Shown: in pieces, positions 3,114 through 26,509 of the stretch | Numbering within the stretch: the first letter of the stretch is position 1 | Layout: each line of letters opens with the position of its first letter | Origin: Candidatus Methanoperedens sp. | GTDB taxonomy: Archaea > Halobacteriota > Methanosarcinia > Methanosarcinales > Methanoperedenaceae | Assembly: GCA_041494705.1 (NCBI GenBank) | Contig: JBGQBI010000005.1 | Coordinates: 120,001-152,000, forward strand | Length of the DNA stretch: 32,000 bases | Reading direction: 5' to 3' | Made by a program: the position numbers and the translations under genes | Notes under the pieces: generated by a model | Databases searched by the model: none | What the model saw: only the letters and a program-made list of their open reading frames with translations | Told to the model about the DNA's origin: nothing

Positions 3114-4400
3114 TCATCTGCGGTCTTTTTTATTCATATCCACAAAAGATAAAACCAGGCCAATAACCACAAGCACCGCGCCTACAAGTAGAACCTTCCA
3201 CTCAAGCTGAAAAAGCATAAACACGCAAAATAAAATACCGAATAACGGCAGTACCGGGAATTTTCCTATCGCAAGAGGGACTTTAAAAGACCTTCTCATT
3301 TGCGGTTCCTTGTATCTTAACAGTATCAGGGCAGCATTTATCACAAAAAATGTCACAAACAGCGTGAAGTTATCCACCTTAGCCACAAAAGCAATATCAC
3401 CGGCAAAAACGAAAAGCATTGACAGCAGCATCGCAGCGAATATGGCAATCCATGGCGTTCTTCTCGTGATATGCACACTTCCGAGGATACCCGGAAGAGT
3501 GAAAGAATCCGCCATGCCATAGATTATCCTCGATGCGCCGAGCAGCATCATAAGAACAGTATTTGCAGTTGCAAAAAGTGCTATCATGGCTAATAGAATG
3601 AACGCATCGCTTCCGAAAGCACTGAATGCGAGGTCTGCAAAGGGCGCATCCGATGCCGCAAGTTTTTCCCATCCTGTTACACTGACTGCGGAGATTGCTA
3701 CTGAAATGTACAGGACAATACTGATTAAGATTGCCAGCATCAATCCTTTCGGAATTGTTTTTTCAGGGTTTTTAGTCTCTTCCGAGAGCTTTACAATACT
3801 TTCAAACCCGGTATATGCAAAAAATACAAGCGCAGAAGCCTGGAAAACTCCTGTCAAGCCCTGCGGCATCTCAAAATAATCCACTTTCCCAAGATAGGGA
3901 AGCCCTATGAAAATTATCAAAATAAGACCTGCGCTTTCTATGAGGGTGGATATTATCGCAAACCATACAGACTCTTTTAAGCCCCAGAAAAGGAGGATGG
4001 AGAGGGCGATTATGAGGAGGAGGGCGGACGTTATGATGGGCACTCCGGAAAGCGCTTTGAAATAACCTCCGAAACCCAGGGCTACAGTTGATGCGCCGAT
4101 TACGGCGCTCAGGATAATCAACCAGCCGATAATGAATGCAAGCCTCCTGCCGAAAGCATTTGAGGTATATTCATACTCGGCGCTCGCTCTCGGGAACATG
4201 GAAGAGAGTTCTGCATAGCTCAATCCTGTAAAAACTGCAATAAGCGATGCAAACGCAAACGAGAGCCAGACGGAGTTTCCCGCAAGAGCCGTCGCTTTTC
4301 CAATGAGCGCATATATCCCTGCCCCGAGGATTATTCCTACACCCGACAGGGTTACCTCGGTGAGGCCCAATTCACGTTTTAACGCCACCTTCTCGCTCAT
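3114..4400 (-). CDS. APC-superfamily amino acid permease
   Basis: 428 aa with about 12 hydrophobic segments. N-terminal LTEVTLSGVGIILGAGIYALIG is typical of amino acid/polyamine permeases. Confidence 0.85.
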   Translation of the reverse strand: MSEKVALKRELGLTEVTLSGVGIILGAGIYALIGKATALAGNSVWLSFAFASLIAVFTGLSYAELSSMFPRASAEYEYTSNAFGRRLAFIIGWLIILSAVIGASTVALGFGGYFKALSGVPIITSALLLIIALSILLFWGLKESVWFAIISTLIESAGLILIIFIGLPYLGKVDYFEMPQGLTGVFQASALVFFAYTGFESIVKLSEETKNPEKTIPKGLMLAILISIVLYISVAISAVSVTGWEKLAASDAPFADLAFSAFGSDAFILLAMIALFATANTVLMMLLGASRIIYGMADSFTLPGILGSVHITRRTPWIAIFAAMLLSMLFVFAGDIAFVAKVDNFTLFVTFFVINAALILLRYKEPQMRRSFKVPLAIGKFPVLPLFGILFCVFMLFQLEWKVLLVGAVLVVIGLVLSFVDMNKKDRR

Positions 4401-6657: not shown

Positions 6658-8118
6658 CTAATTAAAATCCATTATTGAGTATTCCATGCTCGCAAGGTCA
6701 ACAACCGTAGCTTTAGCAGGCATGGGCTGGAGGTTCATCTTTTTCTGGAATTCGGTCTGGCTCTGCCATGTGCCACTATTAATAGTCAGCACCTCTTTGT
6801 AACGGGAAACTCCAACCGTGTGGACATGCCCGCAATGCAATATATCCGGTATCGTATCTATCACGAAATGGTCCTTCAGTTCAGGCGCAATTGATACCCT
6901 GCCCCCGTATATCGGCGAAAGATGACGAAGTTTTAACATCTCGCTCATGGGTTTTGAAGGGTCGCCATAAGAAAACCCCGGGATACTTGCAATTATATCG
7001 TCCATTGACCTGCCGTGATATATCAAGACCTTGACCCCGATATCCACCATCGCAGGATTTCCAACGAATATAATATCATTGCGAAACAATTTAGTAATTC
7101 TCTCTGGAAAGCGCGGCTGCGGTTCAGCCTGCCTCACCGCATCATGGTTTCCCGGCGAGACTATAATCCTGATGTGCCCCGGCACGGCATTCAGGTATTG
7201 CGCCGCTTTTTCATATTGTTCATAAATATCTGAAATCGCAAGCTCTTTATCCTGGTTCGGGAACACGCCGATGCCGTCAACAACATCGCCCGCTATCACA
7301 AGATAATTAATATCGTCTCCGAGCCATTCCACAAACTTAAGCCATGAATCTTCAAGAAAAGTCTTGCTTCCCACATGGATATCTGAAATGAACACAGCCT
7401 TTCCTTCGGGTTTTTTCCTGTTCAATGTATTTCCCTGGGTATTGGGAATGTCGGGGAACATTATTCTATTTGCAAACATCAGGCTGCCATCGGAAGAAAG
7501 CGTGCCGGTGACCCCGATTACCTCATCCAGGATTATTCTCTTCGCAAGTTCAAACAGCTCTTTATCTTTTTCTTTATGGATTAAAACAGGTATGGTTCCC
7601 GTGGTATCCTCAACCTCGATTAATTTATGCCCTTTGGCGCTTGTCCTGATATCCAGGACCATCCCGATAATAGAAAGCGGCTCTCTTGTATCCAGGTTCC
7701 TTTTCTTGATGCTTTCAATGGGTCTTGCGCTTATTCTTTTACGGAGCATATCCCCGAGTGAACTGAAGCGGTCCCTGAAATAATGCACGAACTCCGTATA
7801 TTCCCCGATGCAAGTTGACTGGTTTGTTATGTCTTTCAATATGGTAACCGGGTTTCCGTCGGGTTTAGCTTTGGATGGAATTGCATCCTGCTTTTGAGGT
7901 ATGGTTTTAGTCTTTTCTTTCAAGATATTGGTTTCAGGACGGGGCTTTTGAACCTGATGCTTTATGTGTTCTATCCCTACGACCATTACGGAACTGTCTA
8001 TTGATTTTAAAACATCGTGTATTAACTCCGGAGAACTTGTTTTCATTAAATCAAGTGCCAGGGGGTCAATCTGGAATCCTGATTCGGCAAACATTTGGAC
8101 GATTTCACCAGTCTCCAT
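6658..8118 (-). CDS. polB: DNA polymerase II (PolD) small subunit DP1
   Basis: 486 aa. Calcineurin-like phosphoesterase motifs DIHVGS, GDVVDG, GNHD and GHVH, with an OB-fold region upstream. Confidence 0.9.
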   Translation of the reverse strand: METGEIVQMFAESGFQIDPLALDLMKTSSPELIHDVLKSIDSSVMVVGIEHIKHQVQKPRPETNILKEKTKTIPQKQDAIPSKAKPDGNPVTILKDITNQSTCIGEYTEFVHYFRDRFSSLGDMLRKRISARPIESIKKRNLDTREPLSIIGMVLDIRTSAKGHKLIEVEDTTGTIPVLIHKEKDKELFELAKRIILDEVIGVTGTLSSDGSLMFANRIMFPDIPNTQGNTLNRKKPEGKAVFISDIHVGSKTFLEDSWLKFVEWLGDDINYLVIAGDVVDGIGVFPNQDKELAISDIYEQYEKAAQYLNAVPGHIRIIVSPGNHDAVRQAEPQPRFPERITKLFRNDIIFVGNPAMVDIGVKVLIYHGRSMDDIIASIPGFSYGDPSKPMSEMLKLRHLSPIYGGRVSIAPELKDHFVIDTIPDILHCGHVHTVGVSRYKEVLTINSGTWQSQTEFQKKMNLQPMPAKATVVDLASMEYSIMDFN

Positions 8119-8952: not shown

Positions 8953-9342
8953 ATGCGTCATATCGTATTGAGCGGGATTTCGCAGCACATCTTAACGGAA
9001 CTTGAGCATGATAAGGTCAAAACTATCGAGATAAGAAGCCCGCATAACTTTCTCTCAATACTTGAAACCGATGTCGGGGATGTGATATTCCTTACGCCGA
9101 CAAGCCTTGAAGATGTGAGACCCGGAACGACCGGTGTTATCGCAAAAATCCGCGAGAAACAGATTTCAATGCAAAGGGTGGTCCAGAGGACAGAGGTATT
9201 CTATGAAGAAGCAGAGGTCCAGCTTGCCCGCCTCCAGCTTGAAATAAAAGGACATGCAAGGGTGCGTCGCGCGGAGTGCTGCGCGCTCGGGGAAGCCACG
9301 GTTGTGGACGCTGATGAAGTGCTGTTTTTTGAAGGGCGATGA
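8953..9342 (+). CDS. Hypothetical protein, co-oriented 4 nt after the PAC2 gene
   Basis: 129-aa ORF from the ATG at 8953. No motif recognised. Confidence 0.5.
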   Translation: MRHIVLSGISQHILTELEHDKVKTIEIRSPHNFLSILETDVGDVIFLTPTSLEDVRPGTTGVIAKIREKQISMQRVVQRTEVFYEEAEVQLARLQLEIKGHARVRRAECCALGEATVVDADEVLFFEGR

Positions 9343-10227: not shown

Positions 10228-10479
10228 ATGGATGTTGCAGTAAAAGCAATTGAAACAACAGGAACTGTTGACGCACAGCATAGGCTTCTTTTAGACGAAC
10301 CGTTGCCTGTTGCTGGTCCAACACGGGTTCGTGTCATTATCCTGCTCCCTGAAGATGCAGACATTGACGAAAAGGAATGGCTTTATGCAGCCGCCACCAA
10401 TCCTGCTTTTGATTTCCTGAAGGAACCTGAAGAGGATATTTATACATCCGAGGACGGAAGACCATTTCATGATAGGTAA
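10228..10479 (+). CDS. Putative type II antitoxin (partner of MazF)
   Basis: 83 aa. Overlaps the toxin start by 11 nt. Acidic C-terminal tail (EWLYAAATNPAFDFLKEPEEDIY). Confidence 0.6.
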   Translation: MDVAVKAIETTGTVDAQHRLLLDEPLPVAGPTRVRVIILLPEDADIDEKEWLYAAATNPAFDFLKEPEEDIYTSEDGRPFHDR

Positions 10480-10813
10480 AGTAGTCCTTGTCCCTTTTCC
10501 TTTCGATGACCTTACGGCGCACAAGGTACGACCAGCCATATGCCTGACCAACCCCATTGGCTCCCATCATCATGTCGTTTTGGCGTTTATCACGAGTAGA
10601 ATACCGAACGACTTACTGGAAACAGATGTTGTTTTGGACTCAAAGTCGGCGGATTTTAATGTAACTGGCTTGCGTGTGTCCTCTACGCTTCGATTACATC
10701 GCCTTATGACAGTCACAACAGCCTTGATAAAGCGCGAATTGGGAGAGTTATCACCCGAAATGCGCGCTGAAGTGGTTAGCAAATTACGTAAATTGTTTGG
10801 TTTGAAGAGTTAG
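10469..10813 (+). CDS. mazF: PemK/MazF-family type II toxin endoribonuclease
   Basis: 114 aa. GKVVLVPFPFDDLTAHKVRPAICL is the hallmark N-terminal MazF/PemK motif. Confidence 0.85.
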   Translation: MIGKVVLVPFPFDDLTAHKVRPAICLTNPIGSHHHVVLAFITSRIPNDLLETDVVLDSKSADFNVTGLRVSSTLRLHRLMTVTTALIKRELGELSPEMRAEVVSKLRKLFGLKS

Positions 10814-12528: not shown

Positions 12529-14457
12529 TCACACTGCTGTAACAGGTTTGGGTTCAGGCAGAGGTATGCTGAATTTTGTCCTTGAAGCAATTTTCTTAAG
12601 CGTAGAGATGAGACCTTCTTTCTCTCTTCCTACAAGGCTGTATTCAAGCACCTCTTCGATATTTGACACCGGGATAATTTTGATAATATCCTTGTATTCG
12701 TCCTCAATGAGAACATCTCCAAGGTTTGATTTCGGAATTATTACGGTCTTCATCCCTGCAAGCGCTGCGGCCTCTATTTTGTATGTTACGCCGCCAACGG
12801 GCAGCACATCGCCCCGTACCGAGAGCGAACCGGTCATGGCAACGCTCTGGTCAACAGGAATTCCCTGGATTGCTGAGAGAACCGCGGTGGCTATGGATAT
12901 GCTGGCTGAATCGCCTTCTACGCCTTCATACGTTCCCACGAACTGGATATGGACATCCATCTTCGAAATATCCTTGCCGGTTGTCTTTTTAATCAGTGCA
13001 GATACGTTCTGGACTGCTTCTTTTGCAATGTTCTTAAGCATGCCTGTGGCAATAATGTGGCCTTCTGACGTGGATTGCGTGGGTGTGACCTCGGCTATTA
13101 TCGGAAGAACAATACCTGAATCGTCGCCCATCACTGCAAGACCGTTAACCCTGCCTATCTGTGCGCCCTCTTTCACGAACAGCTTGTAATCCTTCCTGCG
13201 CTCAAGATACTGGTGCGCAAGCTGCTGCTCGACCGAGCGCGCGATGCTTTTTGCTTTCAAAACATGCTGGGCTGTCGTGAGCGGCGCATTTTCACCATGC
13301 GCTATATCGCCTGCGACCCTGACAAGACCTCCAAGGTCACGAAGTTTAAGCGTCAAATGTCCCTTTCTTCCTGCCCTGCGCCTCGCTTCGCGGATGATTT
13401 CTTCCACGGCGCCCCGGTCAAAATGCGGGATTTTTCCGTCCCTGATAACTTCCTGGGCTACGAACCTGACAAGTTTCTGCCTGTTTTCTGCGGTATCTTC
13501 GATAGTATCGCTCATATAAACTTCATATCCGTATCCTTTTATACGCGAGCGCAATGCCGGGTGCATGCCTTTTATCGCGTCAAGGTTTCCCGCGGCTACC
13601 ATTATGAAATCGCATGGAACCGGGTCGGTTTTTACCATTGCCCCGCTTGAACGTTCTGACTGGCCTGTTATCGCGAATTCCTTTTCCTGTAGTGCAGTAA
13701 GAAGATTCTGCTGCGACTCTATCCTTAACGTATTTATCTCGTCTATGAATAGCACTCCCTTATTGGCTTTATGTATCGCCCCGCACTCAACCCGGTCATG
13801 GGCTGGGGTTTCAAGTCCTCCCGACTGGAAAGGGTCATGGCGGACATCGCCAAGAAGGGCTCCGGCATGTGCCCCTGTGGCATCGATATAAGACGCAACT
13901 TCCTTGCCTGTATTTGAAACAAGAAGTTTCGGTATCAATAGTGTTTCCTTTGGCATGAACTGGCGCATCATCATGGCGATTAAAACCGCTGCTATGATTC
14001 CCAGGAGATACTCCCTGATAAAAAATGAATAACCGACAATACCAAGCACAAGGAGCATTATGAACATGTTCCGCGCCGTGGTTCTTTTCTGGGCTTCAAG
14101 TTTGTGGGCGTCGGTAATCTCCTTGCCTTTACCCGCCGGAACAATTCGAATCTTCGGGTTATTCGGGTCGTCCGGGTTGTTGTACACAAGCACATCCTGC
14201 AATTCTTCTTTCGGAAGTAATTCAGCCATCGCTTTTGCCAGCATTGATTTGCCAGTGCCCGGTGTCCCGAGCATCATCACATGCCTTCGCTGGTTCGCTG
14301 CTTTCCTGACCACTTCTACAGCATGTTCCTGGCCAATGACCTGTTCAATTAACTTCTTGGGAACCTCGATATCTTTTGTGGACGTTATCTCCAGACCGCC
14401 AAGAATATCCTGGTTCTTTAATTCGTTTTCAGTATTTTCCTTTTCAGTATTTTCCAT
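12529..14457 (-). CDS. lonB: Archaeal membrane-bound Lon protease (LonB)
   Basis: 642 aa. Walker A GTPGTGKS, two TM helices inserted in the AAA+ module, and a C-terminal Ser-Lys protease domain (GDSASISIATA). Confidence 0.92.
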   Translation of the reverse strand: MENTEKENTENELKNQDILGGLEITSTKDIEVPKKLIEQVIGQEHAVEVVRKAANQRRHVMMLGTPGTGKSMLAKAMAELLPKEELQDVLVYNNPDDPNNPKIRIVPAGKGKEITDAHKLEAQKRTTARNMFIMLLVLGIVGYSFFIREYLLGIIAAVLIAMMMRQFMPKETLLIPKLLVSNTGKEVASYIDATGAHAGALLGDVRHDPFQSGGLETPAHDRVECGAIHKANKGVLFIDEINTLRIESQQNLLTALQEKEFAITGQSERSSGAMVKTDPVPCDFIMVAAGNLDAIKGMHPALRSRIKGYGYEVYMSDTIEDTAENRQKLVRFVAQEVIRDGKIPHFDRGAVEEIIREARRRAGRKGHLTLKLRDLGGLVRVAGDIAHGENAPLTTAQHVLKAKSIARSVEQQLAHQYLERRKDYKLFVKEGAQIGRVNGLAVMGDDSGIVLPIIAEVTPTQSTSEGHIIATGMLKNIAKEAVQNVSALIKKTTGKDISKMDVHIQFVGTYEGVEGDSASISIATAVLSAIQGIPVDQSVAMTGSLSVRGDVLPVGGVTYKIEAAALAGMKTVIIPKSNLGDVLIEDEYKDIIKIIPVSNIEEVLEYSLVGREKEGLISTLKKIASRTKFSIPLPEPKPVTAV

Positions 14458-21918: not shown

Positions 21919-22950
21919 TTATTCTAAATTTTCAACCTTGACTTCATTCTGTATTACAGGACTCATCACAATCAGGTTTTCAGAGCACCGGGATTTATAT
22001 TTGGTGCCGTTGGAATTAAGCACATTCAAAAGGATTTTTTCTATTGCATTTATAGCACGCACATCCGTATTCCCATGATAGATGTACAATGTATTCTCGT
22101 TCACGTCGATTCTTTCCACAATCCCCATGAATTCATATACCGATTTCATGGTCGGGATAAGTATTTCCAGCGGTATATCCCGTATCGGGATCTTATGAAT
22201 TGCCTCTATAGGCGCCGTGAGATAACTTGGGGCCTCCTTTCCTATCAACAGTTCATTATAATAATTTTTTGGGATGGTTACCATGTTATAATTTGTCTGT
22301 TTATATAGATTGACAATGCATTTCCAGAATTCCTGTTTTTTCAAAATTTCACACGCTATATCGTCCATATCCCCAAAATAATTAACAAGAGATTGCCTGG
22401 CAAGATTTGTATTCACCTGTTTCTTGAAACTAATCGTGATTTTGTTGGACATCTTTTTCAATGATACGATTTCCTGCTTTTTATGCGTGATTAAATAAGA
22501 AGAAATCATTCCACCGAGAAATTCCATTTTATATATACTGTTCCCGGAAAGAGTGACCTTCACATGCGATGGATGAACGTTATCATCGTAATCATCTATT
22601 TTTATAGTGGTCTGCCAGCTCACACCTGATGTCATATCATCAAGATACCGCTCAAGATCTGAGAGCATCACTATCTTTGCAGGATCAATAATGCTGTTAA
22701 GATGCTCCGTATCTATCAGCCTGCCGCGGGCCTGTTTGATCAGCCAGTAAACGATTGTTTCTGTGAAGTTGTAGTCTGTTTTTAACCCGTCTATAAGTTT
22801 ATTTATAGCCTCAGGATCTTTTGTCATTATATCTATAAGGTCTATTATTTCACGCATCGCAGCGCTGAAATTTCCATTATGTTTTCGGACAAGCGGCTCC
22901 AGTTTTTGGAGATGTCCTGTTTCTAATGATATATTTTTTCTTATAGACAT
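21919..22950 (-). CDS. Ribbon-helix-helix (CopG-like) domain protein with ~300-aa uncharacterised C-terminal region
   Basis: 343 aa. The N-terminus KNISLETGHLQKLEPLVRKHNGNFSAAMREIIDLI fits the RHH strand-helix-helix pattern. The rest matches nothing I recognise. Confidence 0.6.
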   Translation of the reverse strand: MSIRKNISLETGHLQKLEPLVRKHNGNFSAAMREIIDLIDIMTKDPEAINKLIDGLKTDYNFTETIVYWLIKQARGRLIDTEHLNSIIDPAKIVMLSDLERYLDDMTSGVSWQTTIKIDDYDDNVHPSHVKVTLSGNSIYKMEFLGGMISSYLITHKKQEIVSLKKMSNKITISFKKQVNTNLARQSLVNYFGDMDDIACEILKKQEFWKCIVNLYKQTNYNMVTIPKNYYNELLIGKEAPSYLTAPIEAIHKIPIRDIPLEILIPTMKSVYEFMGIVERIDVNENTLYIYHGNTDVRAINAIEKILLNVLNSNGTKYKSRCSENLIVMSPVIQNEVKVENLE

Positions 22951-22993
22951 AAAAACGTCCTTTTAGCGCGCAAAATGTTCTATGGTTCACCTG

Positions 22994-23031
22994 AATATAA
23001 ACGAAGTTGTGAAATTTGTGTGAATAGTGTA
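22994..23031 (-). promoter_or_regulatory. Promoter P1 (RHH gene): TATA box plus upstream tandem TCACA element
   Basis: Read in gene direction: ATTCACACaaatTTCACAacttcgTTTATAT. The TATA box is 44-50 nt upstream of the ATG at 22950. Confidence 0.5.
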
Positions 23032-23062
23032 CATGAAGTAATGAAAACCACATTAAATCAGG

Positions 23063-23096
23063 TATCACACTTATTCACAACAGCAGTTTTATCATT
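23063..23096 (+). promoter_or_regulatory. Promoter P4 (small TM gene): the same tandem TCACA element plus a TATA-like box
   Basis: TATCACACttaTTCACAacagcagTTTTATC. The distal TCACA to TATA distance is the same 22 nt as in P1-P3. Confidence 0.4.
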
Positions 23097-23128
23097 GAGA
23101 AATGAATTAGGATAATGAAGATTAAAAA

Positions 23129-23317
23129 ATGGTTTCTAAAAATATTACAACCCTGAGTTTTTTGCTTCCAGTTGCCATGACTTTAGGTACCAGTCTTGCC
23201 ATATTTTTTTATGAATATTATTCGTTGACAATGCTTATCCTGTATGCGGCCGGAGGTTTGCTGCTCTGTGTATATGTATTGGTATTAAGGGCTGACCGGC
23301 ACAGGTCTGTAAGGTAG
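23129..23317 (+). CDS. Small two-TM membrane protein (hypothetical)
   Basis: 62-aa ORF with two clear hydrophobic helices. It is the only + strand ORF in the block and sits downstream of P4. Confidence 0.35.
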   Translation: MVSKNITTLSFLLPVAMTLGTSLAIFFYEYYSLTMLILYAAGGLLLCVYVLVLRADRHRSVR

Positions 23318-23348
23318 ATTCTAAATAATTATGATTTTAAGGATGTTT

Positions 23349-23921
23349 TCAGACACCGGCAACAAGTTTTAATTTGGAGCCGCAATACGGGCATATGAGC
23401 CAGCTCGGCTCGATGTTTTTCTTACAGAATGAACACGTCTTGGCAACTTCCACTTTCTTTATCAATTGGCTGCCGCAATATGAACAATTATTCCATTTCG
23501 GGTCTATAAGGTTCTGGCATTTATCACAGAGCTTATAGGTCGAAGCCCATTTCTGGCTCTTTAACTCAATCCCGCATTTGGTACAGAACCTGTACGAAAC
23601 GACTACGCGTTCCCCGCATGAACACATTGGTACATCATGCATCCGCGTTGGATTGAGTTTCTTTTTAAGGTTCTCAAGGCACACACCGGCTTCACGCTTT
23701 ACCATTTCCTCAGGGTCTTTTTCTGCCTGAACTTCGATAATCCTGACAAGACTCTTGGTAAAATCAGGCATTTCCATATCCATTTTTGCAAAATCCACCT
23801 TATCCTGGTTTATCGAAGAAGAAATATATTTTAGAGTCATGAAGCGGGTGGCAACTATTTTACTTTCAAGCTTTTCAAGCATGTGCCGCCGTTCTTCTTC
23901 GGATAATATCTTGCCGCTCAT
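23349..23921 (-). CDS. Triple zinc-ribbon protein with N-terminal helical domain
   Basis: 190 aa with three CxxC...CxxC units (CSCGERVVVSYRFCTKCG, CDKCQNLIDPKWNNCSYCG, CSFCKKNIEPSWLICPYCG). Its start lies 1 nt after the upstream stop. Confidence 0.7.
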   Translation of the reverse strand: MSGKILSEEERRHMLEKLESKIVATRFMTLKYISSSINQDKVDFAKMDMEMPDFTKSLVRIIEVQAEKDPEEMVKREAGVCLENLKKKLNPTRMHDVPMCSCGERVVVSYRFCTKCGIELKSQKWASTYKLCDKCQNLIDPKWNNCSYCGSQLIKKVEVAKTCSFCKKNIEPSWLICPYCGSKLKLVAGV

Positions 23922-23922
23922 G

Positions 23923-24249
23923 CTATTCCGTTATCTCCTCAATCGATATGGATAATAATATTGCAAATACAAAAAACAGAATCAGGGTCACCGATAATAA
24001 AGCCTCAAAAACAGGATAGAACCCTTCAAAAATAATAGTTCCGATAGACCCGACCGCCCTTGTAATACCCAGCAATATGAAAAGATTGGTCATGATAATG
24101 AAATTCTTCCACATCATGTCCATAGTCTTTAAGCCTTTCAGTTCTCTTGAAATCCCGACAAGTAAATGAAAGGAAAGAACACTGCAAACCATTACTATCA
24201 TGGAGGCAACAGTATTCAGGACAACAAAGAATTCTTCATTCATCTGCAT
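23923..24249 (-). CDS. Three-TM membrane protein (hypothetical)
   Basis: Start set at MQMNEEFF (24249, or 24243), overlapping the upstream gene's stop by 8-14 nt. Three hydrophobic helices. Confidence 0.55.
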   Translation of the reverse strand: MQMNEEFFVVLNTVASMIVMVCSVLSFHLLVGISRELKGLKTMDMMWKNFIIMTNLFILLGITRAVGSIGTIIFEGFYPVFEALLSVTLILFFVFAILLSISIEEITE

Positions 24250-24715
24250 CCTCCTTGCTGAACACACTCCACGGCTCATTACGCATCGCATTTATAATCT
24301 TCCGAAGCCCGAAAAAAAGTATTACGAATACAATAACCTCTATAACCGGGTCAAGAATCCTTACAATCGCATAATAAGTATTCAGGGCATCCACTGATAT
24401 GGCAATATCACGCTCGGCTCTTTGCGCTGTCAGCACATCCAGCAAAATACCAAAAGCCATTATGACATTCCAGAAAACGAACAAAACCATGGAAATTGAA
24501 AGGTATTTCCAGGTCTCTGACCCTTTTTCCGCTCTCTGCCACAATCCTGCCGCCAGGTAAGTCGCACCGCACATGCCAAGAAGGAAGGATATCAACCTTA
24601 CGATTGTTCCACTCATGTCAATCCCGTTACTTATGCCGTTGACAGCCCGGGCGACATTCAAGTTAGCAAATAATAATAAAAAAACGCCAACTGTGGTTAT
24701 TGTTCGTTTATTCAT
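24236..24715 (-). CDS. Signal-peptide-bearing membrane protein (hypothetical)
   Basis: 159 aa. N-terminal MNKRTITTVGVFLLLFANLNVARA looks like a signal peptide and is followed by three TM helices. Confidence 0.6.
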   Translation of the reverse strand: MNKRTITTVGVFLLLFANLNVARAVNGISNGIDMSGTIVRLISFLLGMCGATYLAAGLWQRAEKGSETWKYLSISMVLFVFWNVIMAFGILLDVLTAQRAERDIAISVDALNTYYAIVRILDPVIEVIVFVILFFGLRKIINAMRNEPWSVFSKEDADE

Positions 24716-24773
24716 GGTATCAAGAACCTTAATCGTTTTATTCTGAAATCAAACTTAATGTTAATTAATCAGG

Positions 24774-24805
24774 ATATAAACCGATTTGTGAAAAACGTGT
24801 GATAT
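24774..24805 (-). promoter_or_regulatory. Promoter P2 (membrane/zinc-ribbon operon): TATA box plus tandem TCACA element
   Basis: Read in gene direction: ATATCACACgttTTTCACAaatcggTTTATAT. An ungapped comparison with P1 gives 24/34 identity. Confidence 0.5.
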
Positions 24806-24847
24806 GGAACAATTATAATCAACAGTAATAGTCAACAGGATTGACAA

Positions 24848-24886
24848 AATATATAAAAAGAAAATCTAACGGCTGCAAATCAGCCG
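24848..24886 (-). terminator. Hairpin plus T-rich tract downstream of the two-CW gene
   Basis: The minus strand reads cggctgatttgcagccg (6-bp stem), then ttagattttctttttatata, starting 7 nt after the stop at 24893. Confidence 0.35.
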
Positions 24887-24892
24887 CGAAGA

Positions 24893-25108
24893 TTACATCT
24901 TAACGGATTTATACCAATCGCAAACCATGCATGTAGCATGTTTCTGGGCAAACGATCCCTGGACTTTGCCTCCGCAGAATGTTCCTGCAACCATCCAGCA
25001 GTCTCTTCCATGATGCGGATATGCCGGGCATACGCCCATTTCTTTAACTTTTATTCCGCCAAGTTCTCTTCCGCATTTCTTAAGTTCCCAACAATTTTTC
25101 GGTGCCAT
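24893..25108 (-). CDS. Stand-alone Cys-rich 'two-CW' domain protein
   Basis: 71 aa with 7 Cys residues and two CW dipeptides (NCWELKKCGRE ... RDCWMVAGTFCGG ... CMVCDWY). From memory this matches the two-CW domain found at the N-termini of sensor proteins. Confidence 0.65.
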   Translation of the reverse strand: MAPKNCWELKKCGRELGGIKVKEMGVCPAYPHHGRDCWMVAGTFCGGKVQGSFAQKHATCMVCDWYKSVKM

Positions 25109-25121
25109 ATGTATTGGGTTG

Positions 25122-25164
25122 TTTTCACACGTTTATTAATCTACATGTGAAAAAGGTGTGTAAT
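25122..25164 (-). promoter_or_regulatory. Promoter P3 (two-CW gene): TATA box bracketed by the inverted repeat TTTTCACA-N16-TGTGAAAA, plus the tandem element
   Basis: Read in gene direction: ATTACACACctTTTTCACAtgtagaTTAATAA. The TATA box is 25-31 nt from the ATG, so the transcript is probably leaderless. An extra inverted half-site sits at 25122-25129. Confidence 0.45.
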
Positions 25165-25228
25165 GGTGGCAAACGCCAAGATTCCGTTATGTGAAAACTA
25201 TAATATGATTACAACTAATTGTGCACCT

Positions 25229-26509
25229 ATGTTCACAATAAAAAATCATCTTGAAATCAGGAATAATCACCTGGTAATAGGGGGGGCGGACACCACAGAG
25301 CTTGCAAAGCGATATGGTACGCCGCTATATGTTACCAATGAGTCCCGTGTTGTCGATAATTTCTCTACTTACAGGAAAGCATTCCCCGATGCCGATATAT
25401 ACTATGCGGCTAAAGCCAATGGAAGTTTTGCAATCCTGCGGATGCTTGCAAGGGAAGGAGCCGGCGCTGATGTTTTTAGTTACGGTGAGCTTTATATGGC
25501 GCTCCTTGCCGGTATCCCGCGTGAGAAAATCTTATTCAACGGCAATTCAAAAACAGACTTTGAGCTTCAAAAAGCCGTGGATATCGGCGTGAAAGTTTCC
25601 GTGGACTCAAGAGATGAGCTTCATACTCTTTCTGAAATTGCAAAAAGCCGGGGAAAAACTATAGAAATCGCATTTCGTGTAAATCCGGATGTTTCTACAA
25701 AGACGCATCCCAAGATATCAACAGGACTTCGGACTTCCAAATTTGGAATACCTGCTGAAGATGTTGTAAATATTTATGGCGAAGCAAAAGAGCTTCCCGG
25801 AATCTCACCCGCCGGAATACACTGCCATATCGGTTCGCAGATTCTGGATACAACGCCATTTAAGGAAACTGCGCATAAAATGATGGACCTTGTGGAGAAG
25901 GTGACCGCACTCGGCATCAATCTCAAATTCGTGGACATGGGCTCGGGTCTTGGGATTCCATATAAGAAAGATGAGAGCGCCCCGACGCCGCATGACCATG
26001 CAAACGCCATTCTCCCGGTATTCCGGGAAAGAACGGAAGCCCTTGGAATCACACCGAAACTCATAATTGAGCCGGGGCGCTATATCGTGGCTGATACCAC
26101 CATCCTCCTGACCCGCGTTAATACGGTAAAGAAAGCGGCAAAGAATTTTGTGGGTGTGGATGCAGGTTTTAATCTTCTTGTGCGCCCCACGATGTACGAT
26201 TCATACCATTACGCTGTCGTTGCGAACAAGGCAGCCTCGCCTACCGGGGATTTATATACCATAGTCGGTCCGATATGCGAGACCGGGGACATATTCGCAA
26301 AGGACAGGGAGCTCCAGCGCGTGGAAAAAGGCGACCTGATAGCCCTTCTTGATGCCGGAGCATACGGATTCAGCATGAGCAGCCAGTATAACGGAAGACC
26401 AAGATGCGCAGAAATACTGGTGAAGGATGGGGAAGCTGATGTCATACGGAGCGCCGAGGATGTCGGGGATTTGCTGGCGAAGCAGAGACTGCCGGCGAGG
26501 TTGATGTAA
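25229..26509 (+). CDS. lysA: Diaminopimelate decarboxylase
   Basis: YAAKAN (PLP-binding Lys), HCHIGSQ, EPGR and CETGD motifs. Start set at MFTIKNHLEIRNNHLVIGG because, from memory, methanogen LysA N-termini begin MF...EIKDGRFFIDG. The ORF is open back to 25163. Confidence 0.9.
   Translation: MFTIKNHLEIRNNHLVIGGADTTELAKRYGTPLYVTNESRVVDNFSTYRKAFPDADIYYAAKANGSFAILRMLAREGAGADVFSYGELYMALLAGIPREKILFNGNSKTDFELQKAVDIGVKVSVDSRDELHTLSEIAKSRGKTIEIAFRVNPDVSTKTHPKISTGLRTSKFGIPAEDVVNIYGEAKELPGISPAGIHCHIGSQILDTTPFKETAHKMMDLVEKVTALGINLKFVDMGSGLGIPYKKDESAPTPHDHANAILPVFRERTEALGITPKLIIEPGRYIVADTTILLTRVNTVKKAAKNFVGVDAGFNLLVRPTMYDSYHYAVVANKAASPTGDLYTIVGPICETGDIFAKDRELQRVEKGDLIALLDAGAYGFSMSSQYNGRPRCAEILVKDGEADVIRSAEDVGDLLAKQRLPARLM

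Follow-up and report, generated by a model that had tools for sequence, protein, structure and literature searches.

In haloarchaeal gas-vesicle promoters, the GvpE upstream activating sequence (UAS) consists of two direct repeats of about 8 nt, which lie 4 nt apart, abut the transcription factor B recognition element (BRE) and are needed for activation. Archaellin promoters of Methanococcus maripaludis and Thermococcales have short repeated boxes immediately upstream of the BRE and TATA box, and the gene of their regulator, EarA, often adjoins arl/che clusters. EarA is a winged-helix protein (MMP1718 family) encoded next to a methyltransferase gene, and its motif is TACATA or A(C/G)(C/G)TACA(T/C) (PMC10665913); the EarA boxes lie upstream of a weak BRE, and recruitment of TFB has been proposed as the mechanism (PMC5512572, PMC10665913, PMC10117864). 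Here we describe a paired box in four promoters, P1 to P4, of a 32,000-nt stretch of Candidatus Methanoperedens DNA (contig JBGQBI010000005.1, positions 120,001 to 152,000; hereafter referred to as the window). The box is very probably the promoter signature of the archaellum and chemotaxis (motility) regulon of Methanoperedens. With nitrate or metal oxides, this archaeon (ANME-2d) removes methane, and no pure culture of it has ever been obtained. Archaellum genes are switched on in its planktonic cells, and a role of archaella as conduits of extracellular electron transfer has been proposed (PMC13046784), in a review that uses neither the word 'promoter' nor 'transcription factor'. We found no literature report of the box, of the PF27313/AF_0136 family or of transcriptional control of Methanoperedens motility, and its identification, made with high confidence, as a promoter box of the motility regulon is new information.

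The Methanoperedens system works like EarA-type control but is not an EarA system by motif or by regulator fold. Its box is TTCACA(C/A), not TACATA, and its reach is wider, with methyl-accepting chemotaxis proteins (MCPs), the che operon, a KaiC-like ATPase and lineage-specific membrane proteins each having their own copy. The candidate regulators, a 343-aa and a 222-aa protein (p343 and p222), are of a ribbon-helix-helix (RHH)/AF_0136_C type and lack a winged helix-turn-helix (HTH). The GvpE UAS shares the paired direct repeats against the BRE but differs in sequence, in regulator (GvpE being leucine-zipper-like) and in regulon. CsmR of Haloferax volcanii and ArnR/ArnR1 of Sulfolobus are likewise lineage-specific regulators encoded beside archaellin genes (PMC13286277, PMC6396743), but they belong to winged-helix or membrane-bound HTH types, their motifs differ, and no homology to p343 was detected. 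At the Ptr2, TFB-RF1 and ara-box sites, activator sites upstream of the BRE offset a weak TATA box or BRE (PMC5512572), although the protein families and regulons involved are unrelated to those described here.

We assembled 30 orthologous loci from GTDB species representatives (372 kb in total) and scanned them, in an unbiased manner, with the core pattern only. The core pattern was matched 108 times against 5.75 expected, and the core followed by a TATA box at the right distance 104 times against 0.4 expected. Every one of these 104 sites lies within 260 nt upstream of an open reading frame (ORF), and the ORFs form six clusters. The consensus of the 105 unique sites is TTCACAC-n-TTTTTCACAA-(M-T-Y-Y-R)-TTTATAT; the spacing between the two units is 11 in 89 sites, 10 in 10 and 12 in 6, and together the units cover the stretch from about 6 to 24 nt ahead of the TATA box. 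The flanks upstream of each transcription unit diverge among orthologues, and the box and TATA box alone stay. Among 27 unique P1 sequences, the columns conserved at 90% or more amounted to 62% in the box, 100% in the TATA box and 0% further upstream, and the corresponding values for 18 unique P2 sequences were 71%, 86% and 0%. Across about 30 species of Methanoperedens, the box thus stands out as a sharp phylogenetic footprint.

Within the window, all four promoters were located where the initial annotation had placed them, within 2.2 kb of each other and in front of four transcription units: the p343 gene (P1), a three-gene operon encoding p159, p122 and p190 (P2), a gene for a 71-aa two-CW domain protein (P3) and a gene for a 62-aa protein, p62 (P4). 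The reported unit spacings of 11, 11, 11 and 10 bp and the distance of 22 nt from the distal unit to the TATA box were reproduced for P1 to P4, respectively. As a fixed distance, however, the 22 nt held within the window and not across species, where the rigid distance is that between the proximal unit and the TATA box (5–7 nt). Similarly, the TCACA pair ascribed to all four promoters is present in P1, P2 and P4, whereas the distal unit of P3 reads ACACA, and the identity between P1 and P2, given earlier as 24 of 34 positions, was 25 of 34 upon recomputation. The claim of tandem repeats spaced by roughly one helical turn next to the BRE/TATA region describes genuine and conserved promoter-proximal elements, which occupy the position that archaeal activators use. 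In the window, T(T)CACAC-N4-TTCACA(A) ends 6–7 nt ahead of the TATA box. Their frequency is far above the chance expectation in the window as well as in the orthologous loci; the strict pattern TCACA-N5-7-TCACA occurred 4 times in the window against 0.08 expected (P1, P2, P4 and one unrelated site at 3341), and the relaxed core 5 times against 0.42 expected. Taken as a whole, the earlier interpretation was partly supported.

The fifth relaxed match, at 13045, falls within the coding sequence of LonB, lacks the leading T in both units and is probably due to chance. This look-alike and the shortness of the half-site are what could be said for viewing the repeats in general as functionless and as a product of chance or base composition. 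That view is refuted by the excess of box-plus-TATA matches in the orthologous loci, by the clean footprints across the species and by a position relative to TATA boxes and gene starts that is exclusive and fixed.

We also scanned metagenomes with TCACACNNNNTTCACAANNNNNTWTATAT, which yielded at least 120 new loci with at least 168 box-plus-TATA sites. Their family distribution was as in the genomes, with the addition of cheY; the remainder among the metagenome sites listed consisted of a few singletons and contig-end sites. The gene downstream of the box and TATA box encoded the 343-aa protein at 28 sites of the genome loci and at least 15 sites of the metagenome loci, a two-CW protein or MCP in 23 and at least 30, the first protein of the 159-aa operon in 18 and at least 21, the 62-aa protein in 17 and at least 7, archaellin in 16 and at least 34, the KaiC-like ATPase in 2 and at least 26, and CheY in none and at least 8, respectively. 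In species resembling M. nitroreducens, additional sites were found in front of MCP genes and of archaellin genes (PF01917) arranged in tandem, both confirmed with Pfam, and the identities of CheY, CheB, CheA, CheR and KaiC were confirmed by annotation of the box-linked loci. Locus L145 has the order arlB (three copies), arlF/G, arlH, arlI, arlJ, box, cheY-cheB-cheA-cheR-cheC-cheD. Because the same box and TATA box precede archaellin genes, MCP genes, the cheY operon and the gene of the KaiC-like ATPase, we regard the box as an element of the motility regulon. The C-terminus of some box-driven MCPs is a two-CW domain, which ties the 71-aa protein of the window to taxis sensing. The four units of the window are lineage-specific members of the motility regulon, and the KaiC-like ATPase is a further member.

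The KaiC-like ATPase is a stand-alone protein of 250 aa, distinct from ArlH, whose gene has its own box and TATA box at L035 (6349–7174) and in at least 25 other metagenome loci. It is often followed by housekeeping genes, for instance that of adenylate kinase.

With moderate confidence in the explanation as a whole, we favor a motility regulon under a dedicated activator, most likely p343. A dedicated transcription factor would bind the two direct repeats, TTCACAC-N4-TTCACAA, about 11 bp apart on one face of the helix, and the bound factor would help TFB/TBP onto a promoter in which the BRE position is pyrimidine-rich rather than purine-rich, as an EarA-like activator. The factor would most likely be p343, the RHH/AF_0136_C protein whose gene lies at P1 and would in that case be under its own control, and p343 may act together or compete with p222, which in other species is encoded beside archaellin genes. 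Directly before the TATA box, five positions, M-T-Y-Y-R, are strongly constrained and alike across the gene families (T in 94% of the sites at −4, Y in 98% at −3 and R in 98% at −1); a noisy background set yielded no reliable BRE consensus of Methanoperedens to compare them with.

Alternative TFB/TBP pairs have been proposed for haloarchaea, and the constrained spacer at the BRE position, together with the rigid distance to the TATA box, would also suit a specialized core promoter, in which the whole block of about 29 bp (repeats, spacer and TATA box) serves an alternative TFB/TBP paralogue. We consider this highly improbable. The direct repeats, one helical turn apart, extend to some 24 nt ahead of the TATA box, past the known BRE contacts of TFB, and units that are inverted or lie downstream of the TATA box, as well as a palindrome shared by two promoters in one locus (L015, see below), fit better with a separate dimeric DNA-binding protein.

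Inverted units are present at several promoters. Just downstream of the P1 TATA box, TTCAGGTGAACC contains an inverted unit and is a possible feedback or repression site. The inverted repeat reported around the P3 TATA box was also present, in the form of a full unit, TTTTCACAC, directly after it; in the window's clade, P3 has GTGTGAAAA after the TATA box. The cheY promoters have (G/A)TGTGG directly after the TATA box. In the promoter of a gene encoding a 210-aa response regulator (RR210), inverted units flank the TATA box (TGTGAA, about 17 nt, CTTATAT, TT, GTGTGA) in 25 of 30 loci that have this promoter (for instance L022, around 8990–9045), an arrangement that suggests opposite regulation by the same factor. 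At L015 (around 6930–6960), the p343 and p62 promoters share one perfect palindrome, TTGTGAAATATTTCACAA, instead of two tandem boxes; judged from its layout, this variant shows the proximal unit to be the putatively essential one and its orientation to be flexible. The use of both orientations fits a symmetric dimeric DNA-binding protein, and the spacing of 10–12 bp with direct and inverted units would be compatible with RHH binding as a dimer of dimers. These arrangements suggest that the position of the unit may decide between activation and repression, and inverted units after the TATA box (P1, P3, cheY and RR210 promoters) would let the same factor repress or feed back.

The same units are an argument for a factor that is chiefly a repressor, one whose binding to proximal and inverted units blocks TFB or RNA polymerase and keeps motility off until a signal arrives. 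We keep a repressor role in play because the proximal unit abuts the BRE: it ends 5–6 nt from the TATA box and touches the BRE position. Most characterized RHH proteins, moreover, are repressors. A predominantly repressing factor is nevertheless unlikely, since the archaellin, KaiC-like and p159 promoters have no downstream unit and since sites upstream of a non-consensus BRE are the typical arrangement of activators (PMC5512572). On the question of sign alone, the unit positions and the spacer lean modestly toward activation.

We then considered p343 as the factor that binds the box. RHH regulators (NikR, CopG, Arc/Mnt and MetJ; CdrS and aCcr1 in archaea) have an N-terminal strand-helix-helix of about 40 residues with a G-x-x-S-x-x-I/R-D pattern, which p343 resembles, and they bind as dimers to subsites, tandem or inverted, that are separated by roughly one helical turn, in agreement with the 10–12 bp of the box (archaeal examples: PMC7439475, PMC9976878). 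Unlike them, p343 has a C-terminal AF_0136_C region of about 300 residues, its N-terminal domain is missed by the standard RHH hidden Markov models (HMMs), and its likely role would be that of an activator of the motility regulon rather than of a small repressor. PF27313 (AF_0136_C) is in the precomputed annotation of all 84 homologues of p343, including one that is 95% identical; the window's p343 itself gave no Pfam match with a Pfam set that lacks the PF27313 model. The 84 family members are essentially all from Methanoperedens or Methanosarcinales, and their most conserved part is the N-terminus, xRKNISLExxHLxKLEPLVxKHxGNFSAAMREIID, made up of the RHH residues. In an hhalign comparison, the N-terminal family profile aligned in register with NikR (two species), CopG, Arc and Mnt at 93.6% probability over 37 columns. 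An AlphaFold2 model (predicted local distance difference test score, pLDDT, 73) places helices at residues 11–23 and 28–44 after unstructured residues 1–10; two helices behind an unstructured strand region are as expected of a monomeric RHH in such a model. The N-terminus is likely an RHH domain, and p343 is the best candidate binder of the box on present sequence evidence. The autoregulatory architecture proposed in the initial annotation is conserved, because the p343 promoter keeps its tandem box in 28 of 29 orthologous loci. The p343 gene was found in every species locus, including those without adjacent arl genes; where archaellin genes are adjacent (M. nitroreducens-like species), some 1.7 kb separate them from p343.

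Several observations weigh against this assignment. The RHH template sequences used for the profile comparison were entered by hand, and NikR RHH aligned in register with p343 by HMM at a weak E-value of 0.9. Pfam, NCBIfam and PDB sequence searches with p343 called no RHH, and with Pfam and NCBIfam this held even at E ≤ 10. The confidence of the structure model is moderate, with an N-terminal pLDDT below 70, and Foldseek with the full-length model against the PDB returned only meaningless matches of low template-modeling score to homing endonucleases and H-NOX. No arl or che gene lies within the window. A distant homologue from Methanosarcinales (P0049) and a 480-aa paralogue (P0055) have no comparable box upstream and are not near motility genes; as a test of co-variation between the RHH domain and its site, their promoters were uninformative to mildly negative. 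Finally, in archaellum-bearing species, p222 and RR210 are equally placed candidates. In addition, N-terminal fragments of p343 matched nothing relevant in Pfam at E ≤ 10, and the approximately 300 residues after the RHH found no fold match in the PDB.

The p222 protein is a paralogue of p343 with the same RHH (MLRKNVSISDAHLKLLEPLLKKHQGNLSAAMRDIID) and 27% identity over 205 residues. It is absent from the window and occurs in archaellum-bearing species (L022, 8259–8927; also L018–L029, L063, L074, L087, L097 and others), where the gene order, if p343 is present, is p343, p222 directly downstream, RR210 and arlB. The box could be bound by p343, by p222 or by their heterodimer; that p343 and/or p222 is the regulator has, in our estimate, a little short of an even chance.

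A different factor might also bind a box that is real and marks the motility regulon, namely an EarA-like winged-helix protein encoded elsewhere, RR210 or p222 alone, with p343 being just another regulon member such as a sensor or co-factor. In all archaellum-bearing loci that were examined, the genes of RR210 and p222 immediately precede arlB, and the box in front of the p343 gene does not single it out, as many regulon members carry one. EarA homologues, with repeated short boxes upstream of the BRE, are reported to be widespread in Euryarchaeota (PMC10117864, PMC10665913). The EarA motif, TACATA or A(C/G)(C/G)TACA(T/C), differs from TTCACA, however, and the annotated arl-che neighborhoods contain no pair of winged-helix and methyltransferase genes (no search for EarA homologues was made in the rest of the genome). 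RR210 has no recognizable DNA-binding output domain, and p343 is the only box-linked gene product with a DNA-binding fold found in all species loci. We therefore judge another factor to be rather unlikely.

Returning to p343 and its paralogue, a more far-reaching reading, which we offer tentatively and with somewhat less than even weight, is that the RHH/AF_0136_C proteins constitute a new class of archaellum and chemotaxis master regulators, unrelated to EarA, CsmR and ArnR, that recognize a single half-site arranged in either of two ways. Placed in tandem ahead of the BRE, the units would serve the activation of structural, taxis and accessory genes; placed in inverted orientation on both sides of the TATA box or after it (RR210, P1, P3 and cheY), they would serve repression or feedback; together with RR210, the system would form a switch between the motile planktonic and the aggregated stages of Methanoperedens. 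If this is true, p62, the p159/p122/p190 operon, the two-CW protein and the KaiC-like ATPase can be assigned to motility or taxis. The presence of the box in every species examined in any case allows the motility/taxis regulon to be listed from the DNA alone in any Methanoperedens genome or metatranscriptome, and the box provides a short list of uncharacterized lineage-specific regulon members and a candidate for a further, unrelated class of archaellum regulator, of RHH type, beside EarA, CsmR and ArnR.

The sequence GGTGTGAA before the p222 start codon is most likely a ribosome-binding site (AGGTG) and not a unit of the box; it degrades to AGGTGG in other clades. The JGI label 'hydrocarbon binding protein' hinted at a V4R domain in the 480-aa paralogues, in which Pfam found none.

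The features of the window are collected in Table 1. The window is of chromosomal origin, because it also encodes MutS, the PolD small subunit, LonB, fibrillarin and FtsZ. The p62 gene adjoins p343 in all 29 loci that include the p343 start (48–98% identity), and among the 30 loci p190 and p122 were found in 19, p159 in 18 and the two-CW gene in 13. The p159 protein has no Pfam domain and is confined to Methanoperedens. The 71-aa two-CW protein scored 80.9 bits against NF045718, above the curated cut-off of 35.

Table 1. Positions of promoter elements and genes in the window
Feature	Position	Strand	Basis or conservation
P1 distal unit TTCACAC	23018..23024	-	retained in 28/29 orthologous p343 promoters
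P1 proximal unit TTCACAA, 5 nt upstream of TATA box	23007..23013	-	column conservation
P1 TATA box TTTATAT	22995..23001	-	every TATA column ≥90% conserved in 27 unique orthologous promoters
TTCAGGTGAACC downstream of P1 TATA box, with inverted unit (TTCACC on + strand)	22984..22995	-	conserved in all clades
P2 box ATCACAC-GTTT-TTCACAA	24786..24803 (distal 24797-24803, proximal 24786-24792)	-	footprint, 18 species
P2 TATA box TTTATAT	24774..24780	-	column conservation
P3 box TACACAC-CTTT-TTCACAT	25145..25162 (distal 25156-25162, proximal 25145-25151)	-	orthologues TTCACAC-yTTT-TTCACA
P3 TATA box TTAATAA	25133..25139	-	
Inverted full unit TTTTCACAC after P3 TATA box	25122..25130	+	window's clade and a few metagenome contigs only
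P4 box ATCACAC-TTA-TTCACAA, unit spacing 10	23064..23080 (distal 23064-23070, proximal 23074-23080)	+	kept upstream of p62 orthologues, spacing 10-12
P4 TATA-like box TTTTATC	23087..23093	+	GTTTTATC(A/C)TTGAGAA conserved in most species
Solitary unit TGTGAAAAC between P3 and lysA, doubtful	25190..25198	+	conserved only among close relatives
p343, N-terminal RHH (likely) and AF_0136_C (PF27313), candidate regulator, P1-driven	21919..22950	-	homologue annotation, profile-profile comparison, structure model
p62, 62-aa two-helix membrane protein, divergent from p343, P4-driven	23129..23317	+	next to p343 in 29/29 loci
Three-gene operon p159-p122-p190, P2-driven	23349..24715	-	syntenic in 18-19 loci
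p159, 159-aa membrane protein	24236-24715	-	
p122, 122-aa membrane protein	ORF 23923-24291, likely start 24243	-	
p190, 190-aa double-zinc-ribbon protein	23349-23921	-	
71-aa stand-alone two-CW domain protein, P3-driven	24893..25108	-	NF045718, E = 6e-23

The initial annotation also pointed to a further unit before lysA, and the unit is present. Membership of lysA in the motility regulon is not supported, given the lone inverted unit, the loss of its TGTG in L009 and a linkage of lysA to the cluster that varies between species. The close relatives that keep the lysA-side unit have the whole spacer conserved. The lysA ORF is listed from 25163, and an in-frame ATG at 25229, which follows a TATA-like ACTATAATAT at about 25197, is probably the actual start codon; lysA orthologues align only from residues 6–11 onward (window 25163–25231).

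Additional features of the transcripts were noted. The distance from the P3 TATA box to the ATG of the two-CW gene is about 31 nt in all species (25108–25139 in the window), which suggests a leaderless mRNA. The 5′ untranslated region of p343 contains a conserved palindrome with a GC core at 22961–22975, TTTTGCGCGCTAAAA in gene direction and TTAGCGCTAA in other clades, which is retained in nearly all species amid divergent flanks and may serve as another operator or form a hairpin in the RNA. In the region 24236–24249, the p159 stop codon and the likely p122 start (ATG at 24243, after GGAGG) overlap by 8 nt, which suggests translational coupling of the two genes; the annotated start of the p122 ORF (24291) is probably too far upstream.

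Candidatus Methanoperedens or Methanoperedenaceae is the source of all the p343 homologues and of all 30 related genome loci. One contig, L017 (CAJPFH010000044.1), is labeled as a Flavobacteriales bacterium and has the p343 and p62 of Methanoperedens with promoters identical to those of BLZ2 (L012); it is probably mis-binned. L004 and L009 come from one metagenome-assembled genome (JAPZAP01) and represent different versions of the locus, whose p343 proteins share 97% and 85% identity with that of the window; this points to a mixed bin or two strains. Elsewhere in the window, a MazF/PemK-type toxin gene lies among housekeeping genes at 10469–10813.

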